64,000 nucleotides of DNA from a virus (lineage: Duplodnaviria; Heunggongvirae; Uroviricota; Caudoviricetes): IMG/VR virus record IMGVR_UViG_3300047557_002576; one strand, written 5' to 3'. The notes below the pieces were generated by a model. It made no database searches and was not told where the DNA came from. It saw only the letters and a list, made by a program, of their open reading frames with translations. Numbering within the stretch: position 1 is the first letter of the stretch; each line of letters opens with the position of its first letter. The position numbers and the translations under genes are program-made. Shown here one piece after another: positions 1-51,622 of this stretch.

Positions 1-3000
1 CTCTAACAAAAGATGATGTACCGATACCAACAGATAAATTAGGTTTAACTTGTAAATTAATTTTGTCCCCATTAATTAAATCATGATCTTCTTCACAAGT
101 TATTTGTGCAGTTATTCTTTGGACATCTCCAATAATTTTATTATAATTTGACTTTATGTAATATTGATAATCATCGCTTCCATTTGATCTAAAATATAAT
201 CCACTAGATGTGGTTGTTAAACCAATCTGAGTTACTATGCCAATATGATCTACTGATTTTTTAATAATGTATACTGTTTGTTGATCGCTATTATTTGGTA
301 AATCAAAAATTGAACTTGTAGGTGTATTTGATACTGAAATTGATGACGCAGTGCCAGGTTTTACCAAAGTCACTGCCTGATTAGTTTCAAATGGATGATT
401 TGGTAAGTAAATTGATTGTGTTGGAATGGAAATTGTTTTGGATTGAATTCCAATTGTATATACTGCAGAAACACCTATACCAGAAATGGTTCCAACACCA
501 ACAGACTGATTTGGATTAAAGTATACAACATCATCTTCTTTTGAGTCAAAATAGTTAACTTTATTATTAATTTCAATAGAATCTGGAATGAAATATACTG
601 CACTTGTTGCAGTATGTGCAGTTCCACTAGTGTCTCTAGATACTCTAATAATATTTTCATATTTAAAAATATTCAAAATAGAAAATATTTCATTATCAAT
701 TTTAATGCTACTTCCTACAGAAACACTCTCTGGAATTTTTGCAATGTAAATATCAGTTACAATACCTGTAGTGGCATAATTTGGTACGTTTGAAATCAAC
801 GATGATGTATAACTTGTCACACCAATTTTATAAAATCCATTAAGAGTTGATAAACTTGTAGAAAATCCACTTACTTTGACATAATCTGAATCTTGCAGAT
901 TATGTTGAGGAATTATTTTTACCTTTACCTTTTCCCCATTTTTCCAAGTAAATACGGAATCGTTATATGTTAATAAAGAAGTTTGTAGTGATACAATATC
1001 TTTACCTTCAATTTCTGAAACTTCTGCAGATAAACCTTTCCCGTTGGTATCACTTTCATCAATTTGTAAGCGATCTCCCACTTTATAATTAACGCCAGGG
1101 TCAATTATTTCAAATTGATCTATAGAACTATTTGATACCGATTCTACGACTGCAATTTGATTTATAGACTCATTTGATTCTGGAATAAAATCATTATCGG
1201 CATATGGATCACCTACTTTATATGGGAAAGTATTTCTGACTAAACTTGATGAATTAAAATTAAATTCTTGAGTTAAAGTCTTATTTTCAGATATAAATTT
1301 AGATCTGAACGTATTACCGATAAAGTAAGGAAAACTTCCAACCTGCCTATTATTAGCACTAGTTATTGTTGTTGCAAAATATGCATAGATCCCGTTAGGA
1401 AATTCTGGAGTTACACAGAATCTTCCATTGTATTCATCCAGATCTCCAGAGTTATTATACTGATAGTCTTCAATAAAAAATCCAGGAGAAAAATCAGATG
1501 GTCTATTAAAAACTTTACTAGAATCTAATGCATAACCAGATACTAGTTTTTTAATGGCGGAGTTTTTATTTGATGGATTTGAATATCCAAAAGATCCATA
1601 GATTGGATTTCCATCATATGCCCATCCAATTATTGGAGAATGTGTAGATCCGTTGTCATTAAAAATATCTCTAGTTAATTGTGAGTATGAATAAATTGAA
1701 TACTGCAAATTATTTAATGAATCTTTTAGTAGTTCTCCAGTGGATGTAGAACTACCAATATCTGAATAGATTGAATCAATATTAACTCTTAAAGATCTTA
1801 CTTGCGGATCAAAGATTACTTTTTCGCCAGAAGGTTCTACAATTAGTTGTGTATCATTTTGAGAATACCCATTTCCTGGGTTGATAATCTCAACATCAAC
1901 GATTTTGTTATTAACTACTACTGGTTTTAAAATTGCACCAATTCCAGATCCTATAACTTTAATTTCTGGTAGTGAGTAATATTCATCTCCAGGATATTGA
2001 ATTGATACATCATTTATTCTTCCATCAATAACTACAGGTATCAATTGGGCGTATTTCCCATTTTTAACTATAATTGATGGTTTCTTGTGATAATTTAAAA
2101 TATTAGATCCATAGTCCTGCCCATTATCATATACATAAGTGTCAATTATTTGACCTCTTACGATAGGAGTTGCTTTAATTTGTCCCTTAAATTGGGTACT
2201 TCCAATTCCAACATAAGTATATTCTACATTTAAAGATATTTGTGGATAATTAAAAATCTGATATCCAGATCCAGATGTAGTGAAAGTGACATAATCACCT
2301 CTTTGATAATTTGATACGAATGTTCCACCAATTCCTGCATCAGATAATCTAAACGAATTTTCATCAACTTTAATTACATAATATTGCTTTTCAGTACTTA
2401 ATCCACTGATACCTGATGTTTGATAATTATATGTTACTAGTTCTCCACTGTTAAATCCATGATTTGAAAATGTTATAGTATGATTGGACGTTGAAATACC
2501 TGAAGGAAGAACTCTAAGTTTCCGATTTTGATATCCAGATCCTCCATTTATTACTTTTATTTCACGTAGAGTATTTTTTGGTAAAGTAACAAATTTATGA
2601 ACACCTGTAGTTCCAATTGTTGTAAATCCTACAGTGTTAATTCCGGATACATATTCTGAAAATGATTCATAAATTTGAATTGTAGTGTCATTTATGTATT
2701 TTGCATAGTATGTTACTTCATTTTTTAGAGTTTTTCCGGTATCAAAATTATTTCCATTAAAAGTTCCTATTCCGAGTGGTGAAGCATTTCCAGGTCTGTA
2801 AATTATTGCATCGCCATCGATTAATCCGTGTCTAGATTTAAATGTTATGGTCTCATTTGATACATCTACGCCGCCACCATATACTATTTCTCTTGCATCA
2901 AATTCTATTTCTCTCCTTCTTCTCTCAATAATTGGTTGAAATGCAGCTCCACTACCATTTCCGCCGGTAAGAGCAACGGAAACCACAACATTTATATCAA

Positions 3001-5320
3001 AATCTTGAGGAGATACATAAATTTTTTCTACAGATCCATCTACTATTGGTTGTACCTTTGCAGATCCTTCTGAAACAACCAATTCAGGTGGATTGATTAC
3101 ATCATATTTTTTTCCTCCACTTAAAACATTTACAGATTCTAGTGGACCATAGAAAATTTGATTTTCGGATTTGTAATTTGTAATTTCAACACCATTGATC
3201 AGCATTCCAATAGAACCAGGTTCAGTTAAATCGGATTGCCCATCTCCAATATTTGTCGAAATTGGAAATTTTTTAAGTATTTTTTGTGGGGATAATACTT
3301 TTTGCTTTTGACTATTTAAAACAAAATTATGATTTCCGGCAGTTAACGCACCAAATCTTAAGTAATTGTCAGTTCCTATAAGATTTCTAGAGAGATATAG
3401 TTTTACTTGTTGATTATTTGTACCTGGAACTATTTCTACGTAATAAAATCCTTCAGTTAACCCAGAAATTGGAGTTTGTGATGGAGTATAGTATACTTCA
3501 CTTCCAGTTATAAATGAAACTTGTTCTGAAAATGTTATTTTAGAATACAGTTTAGTAATATCATCTTGATCTAAAACACCAGATGCATTATATGAAAAGA
3601 TTGATTTAGAAATTTGATAAGATGGTAGCGAATTTGATGCGACATACATGCTTTCATCGCTATCATTGTATACATTTTGAACGTCTGCAAATAAATCATT
3701 ATATTCTAAAGAATATTTTGTTGATGATATTGAAGATGTTTTAATTTTTCTTCTTACATCATAATCAAATGCAACATTTGGAGTGAAACTCGTGTTTATT
3801 GTAATTTGATTATTTGTAGTATTAATAGAATTTATTAATACGTTTGAGGCAACTACAGTCTGAGACCCTCTAGATAGAATATCAATTCTATCTCCCACTT
3901 TTAAACTAGATTTGTCTATATCACTTTTTAGAATAAATTGTGTTTGAGAAACAAACCTATCAATTTGGTATCTTGAACTGGTATTATAAATCCAACTATT
4001 TGCAAAAATTTCTTTCTTTGATGGATTTACATCTTTATTTTTTATTAATTCGCCAACATTCTTTACGGTTATTTTTTCACCAACATCTATGTTAGAATCA
4101 CTGTTGAGTAAATTTAATCCAGTTAGTACACCAGTTAATCTGAATTCTACCTTTTTAGAAAGATCTCCATTTTCGTAACCGTAGTAAGTATCTGAAGATC
4201 TAATTACTGATGCTACTGGAATCTGTTCAACTATTCCTGAGCATCCAAAAAATTGATTGATACTCTTACTGGTATATTCAATTACGTTGTTGCCGCAGTA
4301 TATTTTTCCGGAAGGTGGAAATCCAATTGTAGAATCTACAATTATTGTAGAACTACCTACACTTACTGTGTTTAAATTTTTAGTGCTTCCTGTAATCTCA
4401 AATGTTCCAGTTATGGTTGGAAATGCATCATCATATCCAACGAATAAAAGGAACTTATAATAAGTTTTTCCTTTTCTTGTGATTACTTCAACTTCAGAAA
4501 CTGAAGCAGTTGTTTTTTCATCAGTGCTCTTTACAATAGTTTGACCAATTAAGTTGAAAGGATTTCCTGAAATTAGATCTCCAATTACAACAACTCTTCT
4601 TGAATATGTTGCTGAGGAAGGTTTAATTAGAAACTGCTCTAAATCTACAACTTTTGGAGTCTCACCGAACAAAATATTGAAGAGAATCCTAAAAGATTCA
4701 TTTGTACCCTTAGACTCATAAAAGGTTCTTGCTTCTTTTACAAAATTACCTACGTTTAAATTCGAAGTAAAATTTAAATTTTCAAATCCTGGAGTTAAAG
4801 AATACTTAAGTTTTTTATAAAACTCTTGTAAAAACAGTACACTAAGATTTTGAATCTTTGAATTTTCAGAGTGACTGCTTGCACTTGATTCTGAAAAAAC
4901 TAATTCTTCTGAGTTTAAAGTTTGGTGATAATCAGTTACACCAGAAAATCCACGAATACAACCAGTAAATGTATTTGTTGTTATTCCGGTGTATGTAATA
5001 ATCTCATCATCAATTTTTAATAATCCATATTTTTTAGGAAATCCTTTAGTACTTGATACTACTATTTCCGTTGATGTACTTGATATATTTGAAGAAAGAG
5101 ACGTAAATCCTACAATAACTTCTGGTGTTAAGTTATCTAACTTGAGATATTGATCTAAATTATCAACTATATCAATTGTACCACCTTGAAATTCTTGGGA
5201 AATATAATATTGCCGCAAGAATTCCGATAATTTTGGACTTTCATCTAAAATAAATTCCGGGAGTTGATTTTCAATTATATCTTGTACTTTTATCCTAGAT
5301 TCAAAACCAGTCTGTATCAT
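1..5320 (-). CDS. giant virion structural protein, partial (more than 1770 aa; runs off the left edge); baseplate/tail-fibre-like (gp7-like position)
   Basis: ATG at 5318-5320 is preceded by AAAGAGG and overlaps the TAA of the upstream gene (TAATATG). The frame stays open to position 1; it is absent from the ORF track only because it has no stop in the window. S/T/N/G-rich repetitive structural composition. Confidence 0.6.
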   Translation of the reverse strand, partial: MIQTGFESRIKVQDIIENQLPEFILDESPKLSEFLRQYYISQEFQGGTIDIVDNLDQYLKLDNLTPEVIVGFTSLSSNISSTSTEIVVSSTKGFPKKYGLLKIDDEIITYTGITTNTFTGCIRGFSGVTDYHQTLNSEELVFSESSASSHSENSKIQNLSVLFLQEFYKKLKYSLTPGFENLNFTSNLNVGNFVKEARTFYESKGTNESFRILFNILFGETPKVVDLEQFLIKPSSATYSRRVVVIGDLISGNPFNLIGQTIVKSTDEKTTASVSEVEVITRKGKTYYKFLLFVGYDDAFPTITGTFEITGSTKNLNTVSVGSSTIIVDSTIGFPPSGKIYCGNNVIEYTSKSINQFFGCSGIVEQIPVASVIRSSDTYYGYENGDLSKKVEFRLTGVLTGLNLLNSDSNIDVGEKITVKNVGELIKNKDVNPSKKEIFANSWIYNTSSRYQIDRFVSQTQFILKSDIDKSSLKVGDRIDILSRGSQTVVASNVLINSINTTNNQITINTSFTPNVAFDYDVRRKIKTSSISSTKYSLEYNDLFADVQNVYNDSDESMYVASNSLPSYQISKSIFSYNASGVLDQDDITKLYSKITFSEQVSFITGSEVYYTPSQTPISGLTEGFYYVEIVPGTNNQQVKLYLSRNLIGTDNYLRFGALTAGNHNFVLNSQKQKVLSPQKILKKFPISTNIGDGQSDLTEPGSIGMLINGVEITNYKSENQIFYGPLESVNVLSGGKKYDVINPPELVVSEGSAKVQPIVDGSVEKIYVSPQDFDINVVVSVALTGGNGSGAAFQPIIERRRREIEFDAREIVYGGGVDVSNETITFKSRHGLIDGDAIIYRPGNASPLGIGTFNGNNFDTGKTLKNEVTYYAKYINDTTIQIYESFSEYVSGINTVGFTTIGTTGVHKFVTLPKNTLREIKVINGGSGYQNRKLRVLPSGISTSNHTITFSNHGFNSGELVTYNYQTSGISGLSTEKQYYVIKVDENSFRLSDAGIGGTFVSNYQRGDYVTFTTSGSGYQIFNYPQISLNVEYTYVGIGSTQFKGQIKATPIVRGQIIDTYVYDNGQDYGSNILNYHKKPSIIVKNGKYAQLIPVVIDGRINDVSIQYPGDEYYSLPEIKVIGSGIGAILKPVVVNNKIVDVEIINPGNGYSQNDTQLIVEPSGEKVIFDPQVRSLRVNIDSIYSDIGSSTSTGELLKDSLNNLQYSIYSYSQLTRDIFNDNGSTHSPIIGWAYDGNPIYGSFGYSNPSNKNSAIKKLVSGYALDSSKVFNRPSDFSPGFFIEDYQYNNSGDLDEYNGRFCVTPEFPNGIYAYFATTITSANNRQVGSFPYFIGNTFRSKFISENKTLTQEFNFNSSSLVRNTFPYKVGDPYADNDFIPESNESINQIAVVESVSNSSIDQFEIIDPGVNYKVGDRLQIDESDTNGKGLSAEVSEIEGKDIVSLQTSLLTYNDSVFTWKNGEKVKVKIIPQHNLQDSDYVKVSGFSTSLSTLNGFYKIGVTSYTSSLISNVPNYATTGIVTDIYIAKIPESVSVGSSIKIDNEIFSILNIFKYENIIRVSRDTSGTAHTATSAVYFIPDSIEINNKVNYFDSKEDDVVYFNPNQSVGVGTISGIGVSAVYTIGIQSKTISIPTQSIYLPNHPFETNQAVTLVKPGTASSISVSNTPTSSIFDLPNNSDQQTVYIIKKSVDHIGIVTQIGLTTTSSGLYFRSNGSDDYQYYIKSNYNKIIGDVQRITAQITCEEDHDLINGDKINLQVKPNLSVGIGTSSFVR

Positions 5321-5321
5321 A

Positions 5322-7259
5322 TTACGACCTCTTTAGTTCTCCGTTGGAATAACTTGATCTATAATAATCATTACTAGAGAATAAGACACCCGATGTGTCG
5401 TCACCAGAAGCGATTACGTCTTTAATCATATTTATTGTGCTTTTTGAAACATCAAATGCCAAATAAAGGCCTTTTAACCCAATAATATCATTCGATTCTG
5501 GGAATGCTTGTATTTCAATAATATCTTGATCAAGAGATGTTGAAGTAATATTTAAGGTTCCTAATAATATTTCTCCAGTTTCATAATTAACTGTACCGAC
5601 AGATTTAACAACTATTGGAGTTTTTAAAGATACAGTTGAACCAGAACCAACAGCAACAGGTGAATCTTTTACAATTGAAATCACTCCAGTTCCTTTCAAA
5701 GATCCATCTGAATTTTTTTCTGGAGTATCAGTAAGATACACGGTTTCACTTTCTCCAAGAATTTTGAATCCAGTAGATTTTATATTTTTACCCAATGGAT
5801 TTATGTGAAATTTATTTCCAAAACAAATTTCATACTGTGATGGGAAATTAATTAATGCTTTTAAATCTCTTCTAATTCTTACTTTTGTGATATTAGAAGT
5901 AATTGCAGAATCAGTTTTATCTATAACCTGGAGAACTTTACTGTATTTAAATCTTCCACCAAAAGAATTAAGGTCCGTAGAATTTGAATATGAGTTTAAA
6001 GAATTTATAACTCTGGTCTTTAAGTCATCTAAGGTATCAACTTGAGAATAATTATAATAGATTGAAGAATCTATTTCTACGTAAAGAATATTTAAATCAC
6101 TGATTTCAACATTAACACCAGCAACAGAATACTGCTTTAGTTTATTCTTAATTTGTTCTTTATTAAAATCAGAAACAAATGTCCCATTTTTTGGTTTTAT
6201 ACTAATTAAAACCTTACCAAATTGAGGAGGATTTAATTCTTCTCCTCCTACAACAGAAACTGATTCTGCTTCAGGATAAATTTTTGACTTTATGATAGTT
6301 TCATAATCCCTTGTGGTTACTGCCCTATACTGCGAGGAATAGAGTCTTGGGGCATAGTTTTTGATTGAGTCAATAGACTCTATATCAGACCCACTCTGAG
6401 ATGATTGTAAGGTGCTTACTGATATGTTATTTGTAACGACGATTCTATCTCTTTCATCTCTAAATGTGCCAGCAAAAGAAAATGAATTCACATCATTACC
6501 CTCTGTTCCTGAAGTAATGATATAGGTAACAGTTATAATTGAATTATTATCTAATTTTTTGCCAAATATTCCATCTCCGAAGAGAATTTCATACTTCTCA
6601 TCCTTGACTTCTTGAATTAAAAAGATCTCAGAGTCCTTATTTACCTGAAAAATATTGTCTACTAATTTAAATTGCCTGCCTATTCCGGTATCGCCAACAC
6701 CTTTTACATAAACTCTAATTGTTGAGGTGTCTATAAATGAATTATCTAATATAAATCTTTGATCTAATGATCCATCAACGGTAAATTGTTTTCTTAAGAA
6801 AGTTCCTTCTGTAATCTTAAGATTATTAAATTGTGCTATATTGTTCTGTACAGTTGCTGTTACATCTTCTGGGATAGAAAATACATAAGATGTCCCTGCA
6901 ACAGATCCAGTACAGACTAGTCCTGCTTGTAAAGTAAGAGTTTTTGTAGTAACACTTACTTGTGGAGAAAATGAAACGATCGCAGTTGCTGCAGTTCTTG
7001 ACTTTGGAACATATCCAATATTTCTAGCCAAAGATACAACATTTTCTCTGACAGTTGCCGAATCCAAAAAGGATTCGTTTACAATCATATTCGCATTAAA
7101 TGCCGTTATATACGTATTATACGCTAAGGTATCAATTAAAATAGAAAAGTTTGATCCTTCAAAATCAAAATCAGTGAAATTTGAATTTGCACGAAGATAA
7201 TCTTTAATAGATGTCTTTATCTGATCAAAATCTAAATTAGAAAACTTGGTGAAAGGCAT
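5322..7259 (-). CDS. baseplate wedge protein, gp6-like
   Basis: 645 aa, immediately downstream of gp25. The N-terminus (NFSILIDTLAYNTYITAFNANM) resembles the gp6 family as recalled from memory. Confidence 0.5.
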   Translation of the reverse strand: MPFTKFSNLDFDQIKTSIKDYLRANSNFTDFDFEGSNFSILIDTLAYNTYITAFNANMIVNESFLDSATVRENVVSLARNIGYVPKSRTAATAIVSFSPQVSVTTKTLTLQAGLVCTGSVAGTSYVFSIPEDVTATVQNNIAQFNNLKITEGTFLRKQFTVDGSLDQRFILDNSFIDTSTIRVYVKGVGDTGIGRQFKLVDNIFQVNKDSEIFLIQEVKDEKYEILFGDGIFGKKLDNNSIITVTYIITSGTEGNDVNSFSFAGTFRDERDRIVVTNNISVSTLQSSQSGSDIESIDSIKNYAPRLYSSQYRAVTTRDYETIIKSKIYPEAESVSVVGGEELNPPQFGKVLISIKPKNGTFVSDFNKEQIKNKLKQYSVAGVNVEISDLNILYVEIDSSIYYNYSQVDTLDDLKTRVINSLNSYSNSTDLNSFGGRFKYSKVLQVIDKTDSAITSNITKVRIRRDLKALINFPSQYEICFGNKFHINPLGKNIKSTGFKILGESETVYLTDTPEKNSDGSLKGTGVISIVKDSPVAVGSGSTVSLKTPIVVKSVGTVNYETGEILLGTLNITSTSLDQDIIEIQAFPESNDIIGLKGLYLAFDVSKSTINMIKDVIASGDDTSGVLFSSNDYYRSSYSNGELKRS

Positions 7260-21339: not shown

Positions 21340-21415
21340 TTTGTGGATGAGAGTATTATAAGGCATCATAGGGACACTCAGAGCATCCCTGTGCCACTTA
21401 TGCTTGTGTCACAGG
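21340..21415 (-). promoter_or_regulatory. PeSL-like cassette: box GTGACACAAGCATAAGTGGCACAGGGA, hairpin, then TGATGCCTTATAATACTCTCATCCACAAAG
   Basis: Member of the recurrent cassette family. Confidence 0.5.
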
Positions 21416-27711: not shown

Positions 27712-28476
27712 TCAGGAGGACCGCAAGGGGTCCTGTGTCAGTTCAGCGACCGTCCATCCTTTATGGTTAGATGCTTTTCTATTAATTACATTGTGTAGAG
27801 ATTTTCTGTCTAACGAATACTTTTCACAAAATTTTCGTAAGGTAGTATATTCCTCCACAATTTCACCAGTTGGAGATATAAATCTCCACATTTTATAGTG
27901 TCTTTTTATTATTTTGTCTTTAGTCTTTTGAGTGTGTTTTTTGCCATAAAAATGATTATCATCTCCTCTCATAGAGTTTGCTTTTTTTAATTTTAATTCA
28001 TCACTCCATATTCTACCTATATGAGTATTTCTTATTTTTTCTTTAGACTCTTCGGTATGAGTTTTTCCATACATTGGATTTTTTTCACCTTTAACTGCAT
28101 TACTCCATTTTTCATAACTACATTCAGTAAATACTCCAGTTTCCCATTTTCTTTTAGTTTCTTCACCAATTCTTTTCTTACGTTCTTCACTGAAGACTAT
28201 TCCACTTGCTCCTTCACCACCATCAGTTCTATTATAAAGAATACCAGTGCCTAAATCTTTCCTACCAAACACGGCAATCATATACTTCTCGTGTTTGAAT
28301 GCTTCTTCTTCAGTTAAATTTTGTTTGAGAAATATAATTCTGAATTTATCTTTTGGTAGGTTTATTCCGTCTTGATGTTTATTATATGCACGATTTTTAG
28401 TTCCTTTACCTATGTAATAAGGACTTCCATCCTTACGCAAGTAAGCATAAGTATAAAACCTGTTAGGATTTATCAT
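27712..28476 (-). CDS. GIY-YIG homing endonuclease
   Basis: FYTYAYLRKDGSPYYIGKG, then repeated GxxHxEExKxKI NUMOD3-like units. Confidence 0.75.
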   Translation of the reverse strand: MINPNRFYTYAYLRKDGSPYYIGKGTKNRAYNKHQDGINLPKDKFRIIFLKQNLTEEEAFKHEKYMIAVFGRKDLGTGILYNRTDGGEGASGIVFSEERKKRIGEETKRKWETGVFTECSYEKWSNAVKGEKNPMYGKTHTEESKEKIRNTHIGRIWSDELKLKKANSMRGDDNHFYGKKHTQKTKDKIIKRHYKMWRFISPTGEIVEEYTTLRKFCEKYSLDRKSLHNVINRKASNHKGWTVAELTQDPLRSS

Positions 28477-28501: not shown

Positions 28502-28537
28502 TATTTATACTAAAAGAGGGGCATTTCTACCCCTCAA
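28502..28537 (-). promoter_or_regulatory. hairpin (GAGGGG-CATTTCTA-CCCCTC) followed by TTTT and TATAAATA late promoter; leader TACCACTGCGACATATAAAGCAGAACT-ATG
   Basis: Same module as in front of the Seg-like paralogues. Confidence 0.55.
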
Positions 28538-28619
28538 TGTTGCTTTAGTTGCGACACATAAGCATCATTATTTATTATAAAGAGCACCCCAACTAACCAA
28601 GATGCCCCATGTGACAGTT

Positions 28620-28778
28620 CTATTTCTGGTACACTGGTGGAGGCAATTCTGGACGATTCATCTCAGATGCTGTCTTCTGGATATTGAGCATCATACCATC
28701 CAGGGTCTTAGCAACAGGACCAAAACCAATGGTAGCAACAATAATACCGAAGATTGTACCAGAAATGAAGTTAAACAT
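28620..28778 (-). CDS. small membrane protein (52 aa)
   Basis: ATG overlaps the TGA of the SPFH gene. MFNFISGTIFGIIVATIGFGPVAK is one TM helix. Confidence 0.4.
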   Translation of the reverse strand: MFNFISGTIFGIIVATIGFGPVAKTLDGMMLNIQKTASEMNRPELPPPVYQK

Positions 28779-29620
28779 CACTTACCACTGAATCCACCGG
28801 GCAGGAAGTCCATAGAAGCACCATTGATGATTACCATCTTTTGAATCGAACCATTTTGGAATGCTGCTTTCAGAATCTCATTACGCTGATATTCCAGCGA
28901 TTGAGTCGTAACAGTCGAAGCAAGTGCTTTGTTCTCTTCTGCTTTCAGTTGAGCAGTGCGAGTCTTCACTTCCTGTTCTTTATTCGCAGATTGAGCAGCA
29001 ACCACACGGTTCACGGAAGCAACCAGATCATCGGGCAGATCTGCTTTACCAACGATAATGGAATCAATGGTAATCTTACCATCCAATCCATTCTTCTTCA
29101 GTGCCTCAGTCAGGTTGGTCTTGATGGTATCCTGAATCTGCTCCAGTTTGCTGTTCACTTCCAGAGCAGGGAACTCATCAACCGACTGGTTCACCGAAGA
29201 AGTAATCAGGCGGGAGATATAACTGGACATCAGTTGAACTTGACCGCCTTCACCAATAGCGTGGTTGCTCAGGTCATAGTTCGTATAGAACTCATACAGA
29301 GAGGTAGGATTGATGCTGTAAGTCACAGTCACATCCATTTCTTTCATAATCGTATTGTCCTTAGTCTTAGGACGCAGATCATTTGCGGTCACGGTAATCT
29401 TACGAGTGTTGAACACTTTGATAGAACCGAAACCATCGTATTTGATACCAGGCGTCAGCACTTCATTCTTCACCTGACCATCAAATCCCACATAGAGACC
29501 ATTCTCACCTGTGCTGATGGTAGTGAATTGACCAGCAGTAATCAGCAGTGCCAGAGCAGCAGCAGTACCACCAAGAATCAGTTTGCCAGTAGACATAATA
29601 AATTTCAGGGTAAAGAACAA
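28778..29620 (-). CDS. SPFH/band-7 (prohibitin/stomatin-like) membrane protein
   Basis: N-terminal TM, then PHB domain (GLYVGFDGQV...VLTPGIKYDGFGSIKVFNTRKITV) and coiled-coil tail. Confidence 0.75.
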   Translation of the reverse strand: MFFTLKFIMSTGKLILGGTAAALALLITAGQFTTISTGENGLYVGFDGQVKNEVLTPGIKYDGFGSIKVFNTRKITVTANDLRPKTKDNTIMKEMDVTVTYSINPTSLYEFYTNYDLSNHAIGEGGQVQLMSSYISRLITSSVNQSVDEFPALEVNSKLEQIQDTIKTNLTEALKKNGLDGKITIDSIIVGKADLPDDLVASVNRVVAAQSANKEQEVKTRTAQLKAEENKALASTVTTQSLEYQRNEILKAAFQNGSIQKMVIINGASMDFLPGGFSGK

Positions 29621-29623
29621 GAA

Positions 29624-29785
29624 TCAGTCAGAAGTTACGCCAGCATATATTAGTGCTGCCGCAACGATGAGAAGAAGAATCAGAGGTAACATCTTGATGA
29701 AAAACAAGACAGGAAGACCTCTTGATAGAAGAATGAGCAGGATTAGAAATACACCTGTTCCAACACCAAGAATACGAGCAACCAT
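29624..29785 (-). CDS. small hydrophobic membrane protein (53 aa)
   Basis: MVARILGVGTGVFLILLILLSRGLPVLFFIKMLPLILLLIVAAALIY, between the pilin-like and SPFH genes. Confidence 0.4.
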   Translation of the reverse strand: MVARILGVGTGVFLILLILLSRGLPVLFFIKMLPLILLLIVAAALIYAGVTSD

Positions 29786-29791
29786 TTTACA

Positions 29792-30034
29792 TCAGTTGTA
29801 AGTACAGAGTTGAGTCATGCGACCATACTGGATGCCTTCAGACCATTTACCACCAGCATTCAGACATTCTTGTTTGTTGGGAACGATGCTACTACCATTT
29901 TTGATGGCAGTGAAGATAGTAAGACCAACTCCCAAACTCACCATAATGAAAACAATAGTGATTATGAGTTCAACAATAGTGTAACCGTTTTTGGAAGGCA
30001 TTTGTTTGTTTGAACTGAAGTTATTATAGGGCAT
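29792..30034 (-). CDS. type IV pilin-like protein (prepilin N-terminal cleavage/methylation motif)
   Basis: SKNG|YTIVELIITIVFI: Gly(-1), Glu(+5), hydrophobic helix; C-terminal Cys pair CLNAGGKWSEGIQYGRMTQLC. Confidence 0.65.
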   Translation of the reverse strand: MPYNNFSSNKQMPSKNGYTIVELIITIVFIMVSLGVGLTIFTAIKNGSSIVPNKQECLNAGGKWSEGIQYGRMTQLCTYN

Positions 30035-30090
30035 CAGGAGGGGTCGCGGAAGACCCCCTGTGATACTTTAGGAACTGTCCTCAGATTGCT
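30030..30090 (-). promoter_or_regulatory. PeSL-like cassette (box GGACAGTTCCTAAAGTATCACAG, hairpin GGGGTC-GCGGAA-GACCCC, TATAAT)
   Basis: Cassette family member upstream of the pilin-like gene. Confidence 0.5.
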
Positions 30091-30614
30091 TCAGTTACAA
30101 TCTTGGCACCCTTGAACTTGGAACGAGCACTCTTGTTCTTGGTGTCAATACCAGTCACCACAGCAATCTGAGGAGTGCTAGAACCAGTGTAGAGTAGAAC
30201 ATCACCTTTACTCAGAGCACCAGGAGTTCCAACATAATGATTTTCACTGTTGCCCATCTTGGCACTGAAGGTATAAGGTACGACTTCCTCCAGAGCACTC
30301 TTGTCAAAGACATGAATTGCTCCAGTACCCTTTTCTTCAATCAGGTATTGGTTTTGACTGTTGGTGCCAATATGAGTACCGTATGCAACAGTACCATCTT
30401 CTTTTGTGAATGAATACAGGGTCTTAGTGTCAGTTGCCATTTCGTCAGTTTCTCCTTCGTAAAGTTTTAGACAGGTATCATCTTCATAAAAGGTTTGTTT
30501 GGATTTGAGATACCGACATTGCCATTGGTCAATTCTCCAACCCTTAGAAATAATCTCTGCAGGAGTTTTACCATACAGTTTGGTGACAATATCACCAACA
30601 TTAAATTGTGCCAT
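30081..30614 (-). CDS. hypothetical protein
   Basis: 177 aa. Confidence 0.5.
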   Translation of the reverse strand: MAQFNVGDIVTKLYGKTPAEIISKGWRIDQWQCRYLKSKQTFYEDDTCLKLYEGETDEMATDTKTLYSFTKEDGTVAYGTHIGTNSQNQYLIEEKGTGAIHVFDKSALEEVVPYTFSAKMGNSENHYVGTPGALSKGDVLLYTGSSTPQIAVVTGIDTKNKSARSKFKGAKIVTEAI

Positions 30615-30880
30615 TAGAGTGCCTCTACCTCTTCCATAATGATTTCTATGTCCCGCTCATCACGATGACCCATAACGTCATCAGTGATAGGAGTATCATA
30701 GCATAGAACATAGTCATCTTCGTTACCTTTGATTACTGCCACTTCATATAGATCATCCTCGTAACCATATGAACCAGGAAAGCGAACAACACTTACTCCA
30801 TAACCGTTAGAGAAGATGTGTTTTGCTTGAATACCAGAACCAATGGGGTGTGGTTGGAAATTGAGATCAGTGAATTTCAT
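30614..30880 (-). CDS. hypothetical protein
   Basis: 88 aa; start/stop overlap. Confidence 0.5.
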   Translation of the reverse strand: MKFTDLNFQPHPIGSGIQAKHIFSNGYGVSVVRFPGSYGYEDDLYEVAVIKGNEDDYVLCYDTPITDDVMGHRDERDIEIIMEEVEAL

Positions 30881-30882
30881 AA

Positions 30883-31173
30883 TCAGTTATTGTTATAAGG
30901 AGGATTATCAAAGCGGTGCATCCAAAGATTATGAGAACGCTGTTTTATGTCCATCAGCATGTTATACTTTCGTTTGATTTCTGAATCATCTGGCAGCATA
31001 TCAATCTCAAAAAATCCAACAAAATCATAAGTTTCAATTGCATGATTCAGAACTTCGTTGAGAAAGTCATGCTCATGAAATGAAAACTCCATTGTGATTG
31101 GTTTTTGATCACAATAGTTGTCTTCGGTCAGTTCAATCATTGCGGGATCCAAAGAATTCCTCCTTGACAACAA
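30883..31173 (-). CDS. hypothetical protein
   Basis: 96 aa. Confidence 0.5.
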   Translation of the reverse strand: MLSRRNSLDPAMIELTEDNYCDQKPITMEFSFHEHDFLNEVLNHAIETYDFVGFFEIDMLPDDSEIKRKYNMLMDIKQRSHNLWMHRFDNPPYNNN

Positions 31174-31299
31174 ATGAATTATAAAGGATTTTGATCAGGT
31201 TGAAAGCAGTGGAGTGCCACTTAGAAAACTGGCACAACCTCTACATTTGAACATCCCTGTGCAATGACATGCTTTTCCCACATTGACGCATCTTCAAGT

Positions 31300-31572
31300 T
31301 TATAGAAAGTTGCCACTTGCTTGGACTTGCTTTTCTTTTTGTCTTTCAGGTAGATTACTTGGTACTTCATGGGGATTTTTAATAAAGATTTGAATTTGAG
31401 AGTCGTCGTTCCAGTGTCGAATTACACCAGCGACAATGAAAGCATTTGTAATCAAATACGTTGCAAAAATAATCGTGCGAATGATTGCAACAGTATCAGA
31501 TTCACGATCACACTTGGATGCTTTTTCACCAAGTGCCTTTGCCCACCACCTCCATGCATTTTTATTCTTCAT
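31300..31572 (-). CDS. small membrane protein
   Basis: 90 aa with a hydrophobic helix. Confidence 0.45.
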   Translation of the reverse strand: MKNKNAWRWWAKALGEKASKCDRESDTVAIIRTIIFATYLITNAFIVAGVIRHWNDDSQIQIFIKNPHEVPSNLPERQKEKQVQASGNFL

Positions 31573-31798
31573 AAATTGAATTTCTTGATTTTACATAAGT
31601 GAGTTCTTTCCACTGTTCTTTGTAACAAACGACCAACAGACGTTCGTTTGCATGAATTGGTGCTGCCTTGTAGTTTTCTACATCTTTTGGTCGAACTGAT
31701 GCTTCTATGGTGATATATTGATTTCCTTTAAAATAAATCCACCCCTCAACACCATTTGACCAGGTTACATAATGATTGATTTCTGGAATGTAACTCAT
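31562..31798 (-). CDS. hypothetical protein
   Basis: 78 aa. Confidence 0.45.
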   Translation of the reverse strand: MSYIPEINHYVTWSNGVEGWIYFKGNQYITIEASVRPKDVENYKAAPIHANERLLVVCYKEQWKELTYVKSRNSIYEE

Positions 31799-32175
31799 AC
31801 AAATGCTGAGATGAGTGGATTTTGTTTGATTTGCATTGCAGAATATTGAGTTGTATCTTTGATTTGAACTACACTACCAACCGTTGAACTGTTGATTGGT
31901 GCATAGTAGGCGTTTGTTTTGGAGTTGTAGAACCCCCAGATGCAGCGAACTGAACTACCACCATTGTAAACATACTTACGATGATTAAGCAACCATATTG
32001 AAATAATGTTTCTTTTGAAAGGTTTGAATTCATAACTGTATCCTGCTGGTGCTTGGTGAGGAAACTCAAGTATCTGCAACTGCTCGCAAATAGTTTGGGT
32101 TGAACCCTCTTTCAAGGTATTCTTTGAGTTTGATGTCGCACTGTTCTTTGGTGAGTTTTGCTGCACTTTCATCAA
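31795..32175 (-). CDS. hypothetical protein
   Basis: 126 aa. Confidence 0.45.
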   Translation of the reverse strand: MMKVQQNSPKNSATSNSKNTLKEGSTQTICEQLQILEFPHQAPAGYSYEFKPFKRNIISIWLLNHRKYVYNGGSSVRCIWGFYNSKTNAYYAPINSSTVGSVVQIKDTTQYSAMQIKQNPLISAFV

Positions 32176-41489: not shown

Positions 41490-41789
41490 TCAGTTTTCCG
41501 TTAATTCAAGTTCTTCAATCATACTTTCGCTCCAAGTAATACCATCAAAATCTTCAGGGCATTCCATCCAATTTTGGGCATCTTCTTCGGTTTCAAAATC
41601 TTTATAACCAATGTTGGTTTCAACAATTTTTACGGTGTAAGTCATCAGGTGCCTTTGTGTTTGCGATACTATTATAGTGCATCCAGGAGGAAATCCCAGA
41701 TATCCTGTGACAGTTTGGAAAGTGTCCTTAACTATAATTAAAGTGATAATGTGTTTCCCAGATAAATCCTGGTTGGTCTCGTTTGTCAA
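41490..41789 (-). CDS. hypothetical protein
   Basis: 99 aa. Confidence 0.4.
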   Translation of the reverse strand: MTNETNQDLSGKHIITLIIVKDTFQTVTGYLGFPPGCTIIVSQTQRHLMTYTVKIVETNIGYKDFETEEDAQNWMECPEDFDGITWSESMIEELELTEN

Positions 41790-44830: not shown

Positions 44831-44902
44831 GTGTATGAGAGTATTATAAGGCATCACAGGGGAATTTGGAGTGTCCCTGTGCCAGTTCTTCAAGTGTCCT
44901 TA
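44831..44902 (-). promoter_or_regulatory. PeSL-like cassette: AAGGACACTTGAAGAACTGGCACAG; hairpin CACAGGG-ACACTCCAAATTC-CCCTGTG; ATGCCTTATAATACTCTCATACACAAAGGA; 8 nt; ATG
   Basis: Archetype copy. Confidence 0.55.
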
Positions 44903-48230: not shown

Positions 48231-48303
48231 TTGTGTATGAGAGTATTATAAGGCATTATAGTGACACTTGGAGCATCTCTGTGCCAGTTTATCAAGTGTC
48301 TTC
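48231..48303 (-). promoter_or_regulatory. PeSL-like cassette copy
   Basis: GAAGACACTTGATAAACTGGCACAG, hairpin, ATGCCTTATAATACTCTCATACACAAAGGA. Confidence 0.5.
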
Positions 48304-51554: not shown

Positions 51555-51622
51555 ATGAATGTATTATAAGGCATCACAGAAGAACTTGGAGTGCCCTTGT
51601 GTCGGTTTGTAAAGTGTCCTCA
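51555..51622 (-). promoter_or_regulatory. PeSL-like cassette copy
   Basis: GAGGACACTTTACAAACCGACACAAGGG, hairpin, ATGCCTTATAATACATTCATAGACAAC. Confidence 0.5.

Follow-up and report, generated by a model that had tools for sequence, protein, structure and literature searches.

A prepilin-like gene beside an SPFH gene in a freshwater cyanophage

We analysed a 64,000-nucleotide stretch of viral DNA, IMG/VR record IMGVR_UViG_3300047557_002576 (the window), which comes from an uncultured freshwater T4-like cyanophage of the Kyanoviridae, and focused on a four-gene locus where a miniature type IV prepilin-like gene lies close to a gene for an SPFH/Band 7 protein. All four open reading frames (ORFs) of the initial annotation exist and are on the minus strand. 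The first is the prepilin-like gene (29792..30001; 69 aa, with leader MPSKNG and a mature protein that begins YTIVE), for which an alternative 80-aa reading starts at 30034. Its stop codon is followed after 6 nt by a gene for a 53-aa membrane protein with two transmembrane (TM) helices (29624..29785), and after a further 27 nt by the SPFH gene (28778..29596; 272 aa from its likely ATG at 29596). Last comes a gene for a 52-aa protein with a single TM helix (28620..28778), whose ATG at 28778 overlaps the SPFH stop as TGATG, and the translational coupling proposed for this pair is thus borne out.

The locus is situated in a variable (hyperplastic) region of the genome. Co-orientation of the four genes is uninformative, because 42 of the 46 ORFs of at least 120 aa in the window are on the minus strand. 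The closest cultured relatives are the Synechococcus phages S-CREM1, B3/B23 and S-SRM01, Kyanoviridae that all come from fresh or estuarine water; over the SPFH gene, S-CREM1 and the window share 77% nucleotide identity.

A virus-specific miniature prepilin

The 80-aa reading (30034..29792) contains the sequence NG↓YTIVELIITIVFIMVSLGV, where the arrow marks the prepilin cleavage position; Gly occupies -1, Tyr +1 and Glu +5, and towards the C-terminus two Cys residues stand 20 residues apart. The prepilin-type motif described for this ORF stands and its length does not: the product is most likely 69 aa, translated from the ATG at 30001 with a six-residue leader. This start is favoured because most of the 118 homologues that we examined are 63-69 aa long and have leaders of 4-8 residues (counted from the nearest upstream Met), and because ATG 30034 sits within a conserved promoter-like TGATGCCCTATAAT motif, which is also found 5' of the pilin gene in two other viral loci (L013 and L020). 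The 80-aa start was rejected, the 'PYN..SSNK' extension that it adds being a conserved TATAAT-containing DNA motif.

At least 181 homologous clusters make up the family of the pilin-like ORF, the best E-values reaching 1e-32. Among the 117 members that could be scored for the signal motif, Gly occupies -1 in 108 (92%), Phe or Tyr occupies +1 in 114 and Glu occupies +5 in 115 (98%), in keeping with a class III signal. The two Cys residues are exactly 20 residues apart in 118 of 118 members, and the mature proteins measure 59-63 residues. Given the number of homologous clusters and the retention of Gly-1 and Glu+5, the motif exceeds chance; no other ORF in the 64-kb window carries it. One homologue, P0024, passes the TIGR02532 model (31.7 bits against a cut-off of 16.3), and most homologues have a precomputed PF07963 hit.

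Conservation within the family runs opposite to what is usual in pilins. There is almost no variation in the last 30 residues (PxKQxCxxAGGKWSEGIQYGRxTQLCTYN), which we call the knob, whereas the N-terminal helix varies apart from the signal motif. In the window copy the knob reads IVPNKQECLNAGGKWSEGIQYGRMTQLCTYN, which is near-invariant and holds one Cys-Cys pair. That the knob hardly changes points to one conserved target.

In an AlphaFold (AF2) model of the protein (pLDDT 74), residues 9-34 are helical, a second, short helix follows, and the Cys pair staples a beta-hairpin; the globular alpha-beta domain of pilins, with its four-stranded sheet, is lacking. The structural comparison suggested for this protein gave no match, as Foldseek returned nothing in the PDB below E = 2. 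Profile comparison matches the family to solved pilins over the N-terminal 25 residues only, the best being Geobacter PilA-N (3.7e-5), which at 61 residues is of comparable size. As in type IV prepilins in general (TIGR02532, PF07963), a short basic leader with Gly as its last residue precedes Phe or Tyr at +1 and Glu at +5, the N-terminal helix is hydrophobic and about 25 residues long, and the C-terminal part holds a disulfide loop. The family differs from them in that a 30-residue helix-plus-hairpin knob is all that follows the helix, and in that it is found only in viral contigs.

No member was detected among the 185,579 species genomes of GTDB, and tblastn of the pilin gene against 50,697 GenBank phage records gave chance-level hits only (E >= 2). 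The family is present in 42 IMG/VR contigs, all of them metagenomic and viral; it is abundant in freshwater viral metagenomes and absent from the cultured phages and cellular genomes searched. An exhaustive profile search recovered about a dozen 50%-identity clusters at E <= 1e-10, together with a looser set of 65-80-aa mini-prepilins of the form C-x3-GG-x-W-x-E-G...C-[TS]-Y. As judged from its sequence, the gene appears to encode a real, virus-specific miniature prepilin-type protein that lacks the globular domain of a structural pilin.

Weak tblastn hits to a 'pilin' of cyanophages ACG-2014f and S-CAM7 were set aside, as these belong to a different, full-length 127-aa pilin without an SPFH neighbour. 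This prepilin of marine cyanomyoviruses has the form KKxxQNG↓FTLIELMVVVAIVG... and is encoded at 2480-2851 in S-CAM7 (L109, KU686213.1) and at 2462-2845 in ACG-2014f (L108); the annotated start in S-CAM7 (MVVVAIVG) removes the signal peptide. S-CAM7 is the strongest reported binder of Synechococcus pili (bioRxiv 10.1101/2025.09.20.677514).

A conserved pair of SPFH protein and two-helix partner

The Band 7/prohibitin identity given to the 272-aa protein is confirmed by its match to PF01145 (75.6 bits against a cut-off of 23.6, E 6.5e-21); it also matches phrog_200 (2.6e-31). It has 202 homologues, of which the best 120 are at least 72% identical. The protein consists of an N-terminal TM helix (residues 4-21) without a lipobox Cys, the SPFH domain and C-terminal coiled-coil helices (189-247). 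A phmmer search against PDB sequences returned nothing, and a fold search was used instead. The AF2 model is of low confidence (pLDDT 58.5), and every top Foldseek hit to it is an SPFH cage protein (PHB1/2, HflK/C, erlin, stomatin; E 3e-8 to 1e-5), with prohibitin and HflK/C at about 3e-8. The model thus suggests a membrane-anchored protein of the prohibitin/HflK/C fold class. Its likeness to these cages is one of fold class; the phage has a single SPFH gene at the locus, unlike the two paralogous subunits that occur together in HflK/HflC.

We compared gene neighbourhoods across 51 viral loci fetched via the SPFH protein (45 of them informative) and 42 fetched via the pilin family, after clustering all called ORFs. 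The 53-aa gene lies directly 5' of the SPFH gene in all but 2 of the 45 loci, with one gene between them in two loci, and its homologues are 47-92% identical across related loci. Its product had been described as polytopic; it is indeed hydrophobic and forms a two-helix hairpin, with no match in Pfam, NCBIfam or PHROG. On this comparative evidence, the obligate, conserved unit comprises the 53-aa gene and the SPFH gene only.

Similar pairs are found elsewhere. In the bacterial SPFH operons NfeD/YbbJ-QmcA and YqiJ-YqiK a membrane partner is encoded beside the SPFH protein (PMC2636767). The phage pair resembles them in placing a membrane-anchored SPFH gene next to an adjacent, co-conserved gene for a small integral membrane protein; it differs in that the 53-aa partner is too short for the NfeD OB-fold domain (PF01957) and matches no Pfam family. 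Analogous pairs of SPFH protein and small partner occur in three other phage families, where two-helix ORFs of 58-69 aa stand directly 5' of phrog_200-type SPFH genes (Escherichia PhaxI, Burkholderia BCSR5 and Synechococcus BUCT-ZZ01). The phrog_200 SPFH 'lipoproteins' of Ackermannviridae (Vi01-like), Acinetobacter, Burkholderia and Synechococcus phages share their PHROG with the window protein. They carry a lipobox Cys, in contrast to the plain TM anchor of the cyanophage protein, and have no neighbouring prepilin gene. In the Vi01-like phage PhaxI (L098, 2403-3717), the gene immediately before the SPFH lipoprotein and its two-helix partner bears a superinfection-exclusion annotation, and an Rz-like spanin is encoded nearby; the surroundings of the Vi01-like SPFH gene are consistent with an envelope or exclusion neighbourhood.

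In the 52-aa protein a single TM helix is accompanied by a short amphipathic stretch and a tail rich in Pro. The gene represents a conserved family (54 clusters, 62-92% identical) that is found in four other fetched SPFH or pilin loci (L003, L004, L060, L106) and in two contexts identified by direct search. Coupling to a full SPFH gene occurs only in the window and in contig IMGVR_UViG_3300046777_000830 (L004). In S-SRM01 and L106 the gene is coupled instead to a 135-aa mini-SPFH, and in further contexts it follows other envelope genes. The S-SRM01 homologue (L003, NC_070963.1; 3986-4144, minus strand of the locus) is unannotated and 83% identical, and is coupled to gp139; the latter, annotated as a 'protease', is the mini-SPFH. 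An unannotated 63-aa homologue of a two-helix family, c16, is encoded at 5436-5627 on the minus strand of the same locus.

The prepilin gene is a neighbour of two alternative SPFH-type genes

Seen from the pilin gene, the association with SPFH-type genes is close. In 26 of 29 distinct pilin loci an SPFH-type gene follows one to five genes downstream; among the three exceptions, one locus is truncated and another has its SPFH gene about 7 kb away. The downstream gene is a full SPFH with the 53-aa partner in 12 of the 26 loci and the mini-SPFH in 14, and never both. The mini-SPFH (135 aa) consists of a TM helix and the portion of SPFH proteins that forms the C-terminal coiled coil. The protein matches phrog_200 over positions 251-360 (E 2e-12) and prohibitin at 0.0014; BLASTP against the window SPFH protein was not significant, and kinship rests on these PHROG and PDB profile matches. 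Since the full and mini forms occupy equivalent positions and never occur together (loci L004-L096), they may be alternative forms of one function. The pilin family has a recurrent, non-trivial neighbourhood with SPFH-type genes.

Around this association the neighbourhood is a mosaic with many envelope-targeted genes, and highly variable genes are inserted between the pilin gene and SPFH. There is a 4-nt overlap between the pilin start and the ends of the genes for two families of two-helix proteins (c16 and c3), and a gene for a 161-aa lipoprotein (c18) overlaps the pilin gene by 1 nt; a further island gene (c19) encodes a 105-aa TM protein. The knob is also found fused to the N-termini of c19, c18 and c16 (L092, 533-634, among the examples). 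Such fusions may be recombinants, pseudogenes or assembly chimeras.

The clearest rearrangement is seen in contig L004. It matches the window at 95.2% identity upstream of the pilin gene (blastn, window 32000..30081 against 1463..3382) and at 96.5% downstream (29795..28602 against 3804..4998), and there is no similarity between the two matches. Here a 421-bp segment that encodes an unrelated 140-aa soluble protein replaces window positions 30080..29796. The swappable cassette of the window (29796..30080, minus strand) consists of a candidate regulatory hairpin and promoter together with the pilin gene.

A repeated promoter-like cassette borders the unit

A G+C-rich stem-loop (30064..30033, core stem 30058..30039) followed by GCCCTATAAT (30032..30023) makes up a candidate regulatory cassette on the minus strand at 30023..30064. 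GCCCTATAAT is a -10-like box about 22 nt 5' of ATG 30001, and RNAfold gives -18.3 kcal/mol for the 55 nt upstream. A hairpin followed by TGATGCCYTATAAT also precedes the pilin gene in L013 and L020, with different stem sequences.

The window has 15 copies of the promoter-like motif where 6 would be expected; none of 100 shuffles reached 15, and 11 of the 15 copies are on the coding strand. Hairpin and -10 box stand together at six or more minus-strand sites, with stems unlike in sequence. The repeated cassette takes the form GGACACTT...CTGGCACAGGG-stem-loop-TGATGCCYTATAAT, and is located at 21355-21364, 41671-41680, 44843-44852, 48245-48254 and 51563-51572 (each with about 55 nt upstream) and at 30023-30087. 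The element is probably an early promoter/terminator of the phage, and it resembles the PeSLs, composite promoter/stem-loop cassettes that flank shuffled genes in T4-type phages (PMC2839356, PMC4122927). It shares with PeSLs the repeated stem-loop with a -10 box, the coding strand, the variable region and the border of a swapped cassette, since here a stem-loop and promoter motif at a variable-gene border coincides with the gene swap in L004. It differs in its cyanophage consensus, which is distinct, and has no clear -35 box. No earlier description of PeSLs in cyanophages was found in the PeSL literature that we examined.

At the other end, a consensus scan identified a terminator-like hairpin, GAGGGGTAGAAATGCCCCTC followed by the T-run TTTTAGTATA (28516..28535, minus strand), whose predicted function would be to close the unit ahead of a homing-endonuclease gene. 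Because the hairpin/TATAAT cassette (30064-30023) and this hairpin (28535-28516) bracket the four genes, they plausibly form one early-type transcription unit in this phage.

A parallel arrangement in Aeromonas phages

A table published in 2006 enters an N-methylation-motif ORF and an SPFH ORF of Aeromonas phage 44RR as neighbours and makes no comment on them (Nolan et al. 2006, PMC1524935). We confirmed the gene order as SPFH (ORF098c), a 72-aa prepilin (ORF097c; MKG↓FTLIELMIVV..., with a Cys pair; phrog_11263) and a lipoprotein (ORF096c). Aeromonas phage 25, which belongs to a different genus from 44RR, has the same trio; the mini-prepilins are 72-75 aa long, and the Aeromonas mini-prepilin occurs in 38 phage records. 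The likeness to the window extends to the phage type (T4-like), to a mini-prepilin some 70 aa long that has a Cys pair and adjoins membrane SPFH and lipoprotein genes, and to a variable region near the lysis-inhibition and tk genes. The differences are that SPFH comes first, reversing the order, and that the 53-aa two-helix partner is missing. Given that the knobs are unrelated and the SPFH proteins only 22% identical, we regard the Aeromonas trio as a parallel arrangement rather than a product of common descent. Phages 44RR, 25 and 31 thereby offer a culturable parallel system.

The claim that an association of pilin-like and SPFH genes was not previously known is therefore nearly right, the 44RR pair in the 2006 table being its precedent. 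Phage prepilin-type ORFs and SPFH genes are each known kinds, because several PHROGs and the 2006 Pfam table record them; the literature searched contained no described function for cyanophage pilins, for phage SPFH genes or for the pairing of both. What is new is the virus-only mini-prepilin family with its invariant knob and its near-constant placement beside SPFH or mini-SPFH, as well as the mutual exclusivity of SPFH and mini-SPFH and the independent Aeromonas parallel. Through their recurrent pairing, both gene families become open to concrete tests.

A possible role in the infected cell

Our best guess for the role of the locus is early-expressed envelope remodelling or interference with host pili. 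The specific model that we tentatively prefer, and regard as possible, is an early unit of envelope-protein cassettes whose prepilin engages the host pilus machinery as a defective subunit, leading to the exclusion of further phages. Early in infection, the SPFH protein and its small partners would assemble into an oligomeric scaffold within the cytoplasmic membrane of the host. The prepilin would enter the same membrane and be cleaved by the host prepilin peptidase PilD, with its disulfide-stapled 30-residue knob facing the periplasm. There it would act on the type IV pilus assembly machinery of the host as a defective or chain-terminating subunit, a role that we propose because Glu+5 and the canonical pilin helix are kept and the globular pilin domain is lacking. 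In type IV pilins, Glu+5 is needed for filament assembly and not for membrane insertion. Its conservation in 98% of members of a family whose helix otherwise varies therefore favours an interaction with the pilus machinery.

Pili would thus be shut down or altered, and the infected cell would exclude further phages; we suggest exclusion as the net effect because pili raise phage encounter rates in picocyanobacteria. The Tip, Aqs1 and PfsE proteins of Pseudomonas phages block type IV pili for superinfection exclusion. As a proposed functional analogy, these too are small phage proteins with the pilus machinery as their target, in cells that are infected or lysogenic; they differ in that they are not pilin mimics, and no sequence relationship to them was detected. 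PfsE is reference 197 of PMC12378983. For cyanomyoviruses, binding to Synechococcus type IV pili and preferential infection of piliated cells have been described (bioRxiv 10.1101/2025.09.20.677514), which gives a rationale for pilus shut-down as superinfection exclusion. According to a recent report, type IV pili increase the rate at which marine Synechococcus encounters phages, and manipulation of pili inside the infected cell, if true, would bear on the infection dynamics of globally important primary producers.

A wider version of this model would take in the Aeromonas parallel. T4-like phages of freshwater picocyanobacteria and of Aeromonas would have independently joined a mini-prepilin to SPFH; a PilD-processed mimic would poison or cap type IV filament machines (pili, competence, type II secretion), and an SPFH cage would concentrate or protect it. 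We consider this quite unlikely as a whole. If true, the joined mini-prepilin and SPFH would represent a novel type of module, expressed early, and a pilin-mimicry route to superinfection exclusion or to takeover of the host envelope.

Several observations weigh against a defective pilin subunit as the function of the unit. Of the 45 SPFH loci, only 13 contain the pilin gene; S-CREM1, B3 and S-SRM01, the nearest relatives in culture, lack it, and its clean replacement in the near-identical contig L004 means that it is dispensable for the rest of the unit. The four-gene operon of the initial annotation is supported in part only: its genes do not co-occur as a conserved set, and what survives of it is the 53-aa/SPFH pair and the proximity of pilin and SPFH-type genes. 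SPFH genes are found in 173 + 740 (at least 900) phage records from many families. No prepilin neighbour was seen in Stitch (T5-like), Cronobacter leE, Aeromonas Ah1 or a Vibrio N4-like phage, nor beside the SPFH genes of PhaxI, Herod, BCSR5 and BUCT-ZZ01; these eight lineages show that phage SPFH genes do not in general have a prepilin neighbour. At 14.6 bits the window copy does not reach the N_methyl PF07963 cut-off of 21.2, it gave no hit to TIGR02532, and its helix has a four-residue insertion relative to the family. Its three closest homologues (P0001-P0003, 86% identical) have Arg rather than Gly at -1, which should block cleavage by PilD. In the chimeric ORFs P0175 and P0177 the knob is carried on a different membrane anchor, suggesting that it is the knob that matters rather than the pilin signal. 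Only about one in four marine picocyanobacteria encodes pili (PMC7994388), and the host of the window phage may lack pili and PilD. Finally, proximity in a syntenic variable region can come from descent and cassette shuffling alone.

Several of these points would be expected if the prepilin were a membrane-anchored periplasmic ligand or subunit of the SPFH or mini-SPFH assembly, its signal serving as an insertion and anchoring device only. The knob would then bind the SPFH complex, the small partners or a periplasmic host target, and the complex would act on membrane integrity, lysis timing or FtsH. A nearly invariant knob on a variable helix, the Arg-1 variants and the chimeras with a different anchor all agree with such a ligand. 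So do the constant nearness of the pilin gene to SPFH-type genes, its frequent translational coupling to genes for small membrane proteins (c16, c3, c18), the lipoprotein of the Aeromonas trio and the fact that SPFH cages such as HflK/C, found among the PDB hits, enclose FtsH. However, Glu+5 (98%) and Gly-1 (92%) are conserved far past the needs of a plain anchor, and the SPFH pair works without a pilin gene in most loci. We consider the ligand explanation somewhat unlikely.

It is also doubtful, in our view, that the genes lack any functional link and are independent accessory genes in a hot spot of promoter/stem-loop cassette shuffling, with their order reflecting shared descent. This would account well for a precise, gene-boundary cassette swap between genomes that are 95-96% identical, for the hairpin/TATAAT cassette repeated across the window, which is of a kind reported to mediate modular shuffling (PMC2839356, PMC4122927), for the highly variable genes that interrupt the stretch from the pilin gene to SPFH, and for the co-orientation of the entire window. 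In Aeromonas phage Aeh1, moreover, the N-methylation-motif and SPFH ORFs are 24 ORFs apart (PMC1524935). It accounts less well for a pilin gene that stands beside two different SPFH-type partners in differing local arrangements, or for an unrelated mini-prepilin beside a distantly related SPFH in Aeromonas phages of two genera; and many of the recurring island genes are envelope-targeted, which suggests a common theme.

We think it very improbable that a phage-supplied pilin maintains the function of host pili, following the logic of auxiliary metabolic genes and leaving infected cells, for example, buoyant and ungrazed until lysis: pili do keep picocyanobacteria suspended and reduce grazing (PMC7994388), and ACG-2014f and S-CAM7 carry their full-length 127-aa pilin gene, but the mini-prepilin is less than half the size of a normal pilin, lacks the globular domain and has no cellular homologue in the 185,579 species genomes. 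There is similarly little chance that the prepilin jams host Sec/YidC translocons and stops host membrane-protein synthesis, mimicking the toxicity of unprocessed PilA1 in Synechocystis pilD mutants, where unprocessed prepilin impairs Sec translocons (PMC8546353); some members have a non-cleavable Arg at -1, but 92% keep the cleavable Gly, an invariant knob is not needed for such a role and cyanophages depend on continued photosystem II repair.

Neighbouring genes

A PADLOC scan gave no defence match for the four locus proteins, for the p177 protein encoded upstream or for the mini-SPFH. On the 5' side of the pilin gene, p177 (phrog_36463; 30081-30614), p88 (30614-30880) and p96 (30883-31173), all on the minus strand, form a conserved syntenic block, which in relatives is often directly 5' of the pilin gene (L060, L064, L066 and L073, for example). 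On the 3' side, a GIY-YIG/NUMOD3 homing endonuclease (27712..28476, minus strand) is encoded between the 52-aa gene and a DUF6267 gene. It is without a counterpart in the near-identical contig L004 (4998-5023), and a homologue with 56% identity lies just 3' of SPFH in phage B3 (L002, 3100-3723), where it is annotated as 'translation initiation factor 2', apparently a mis-annotation.

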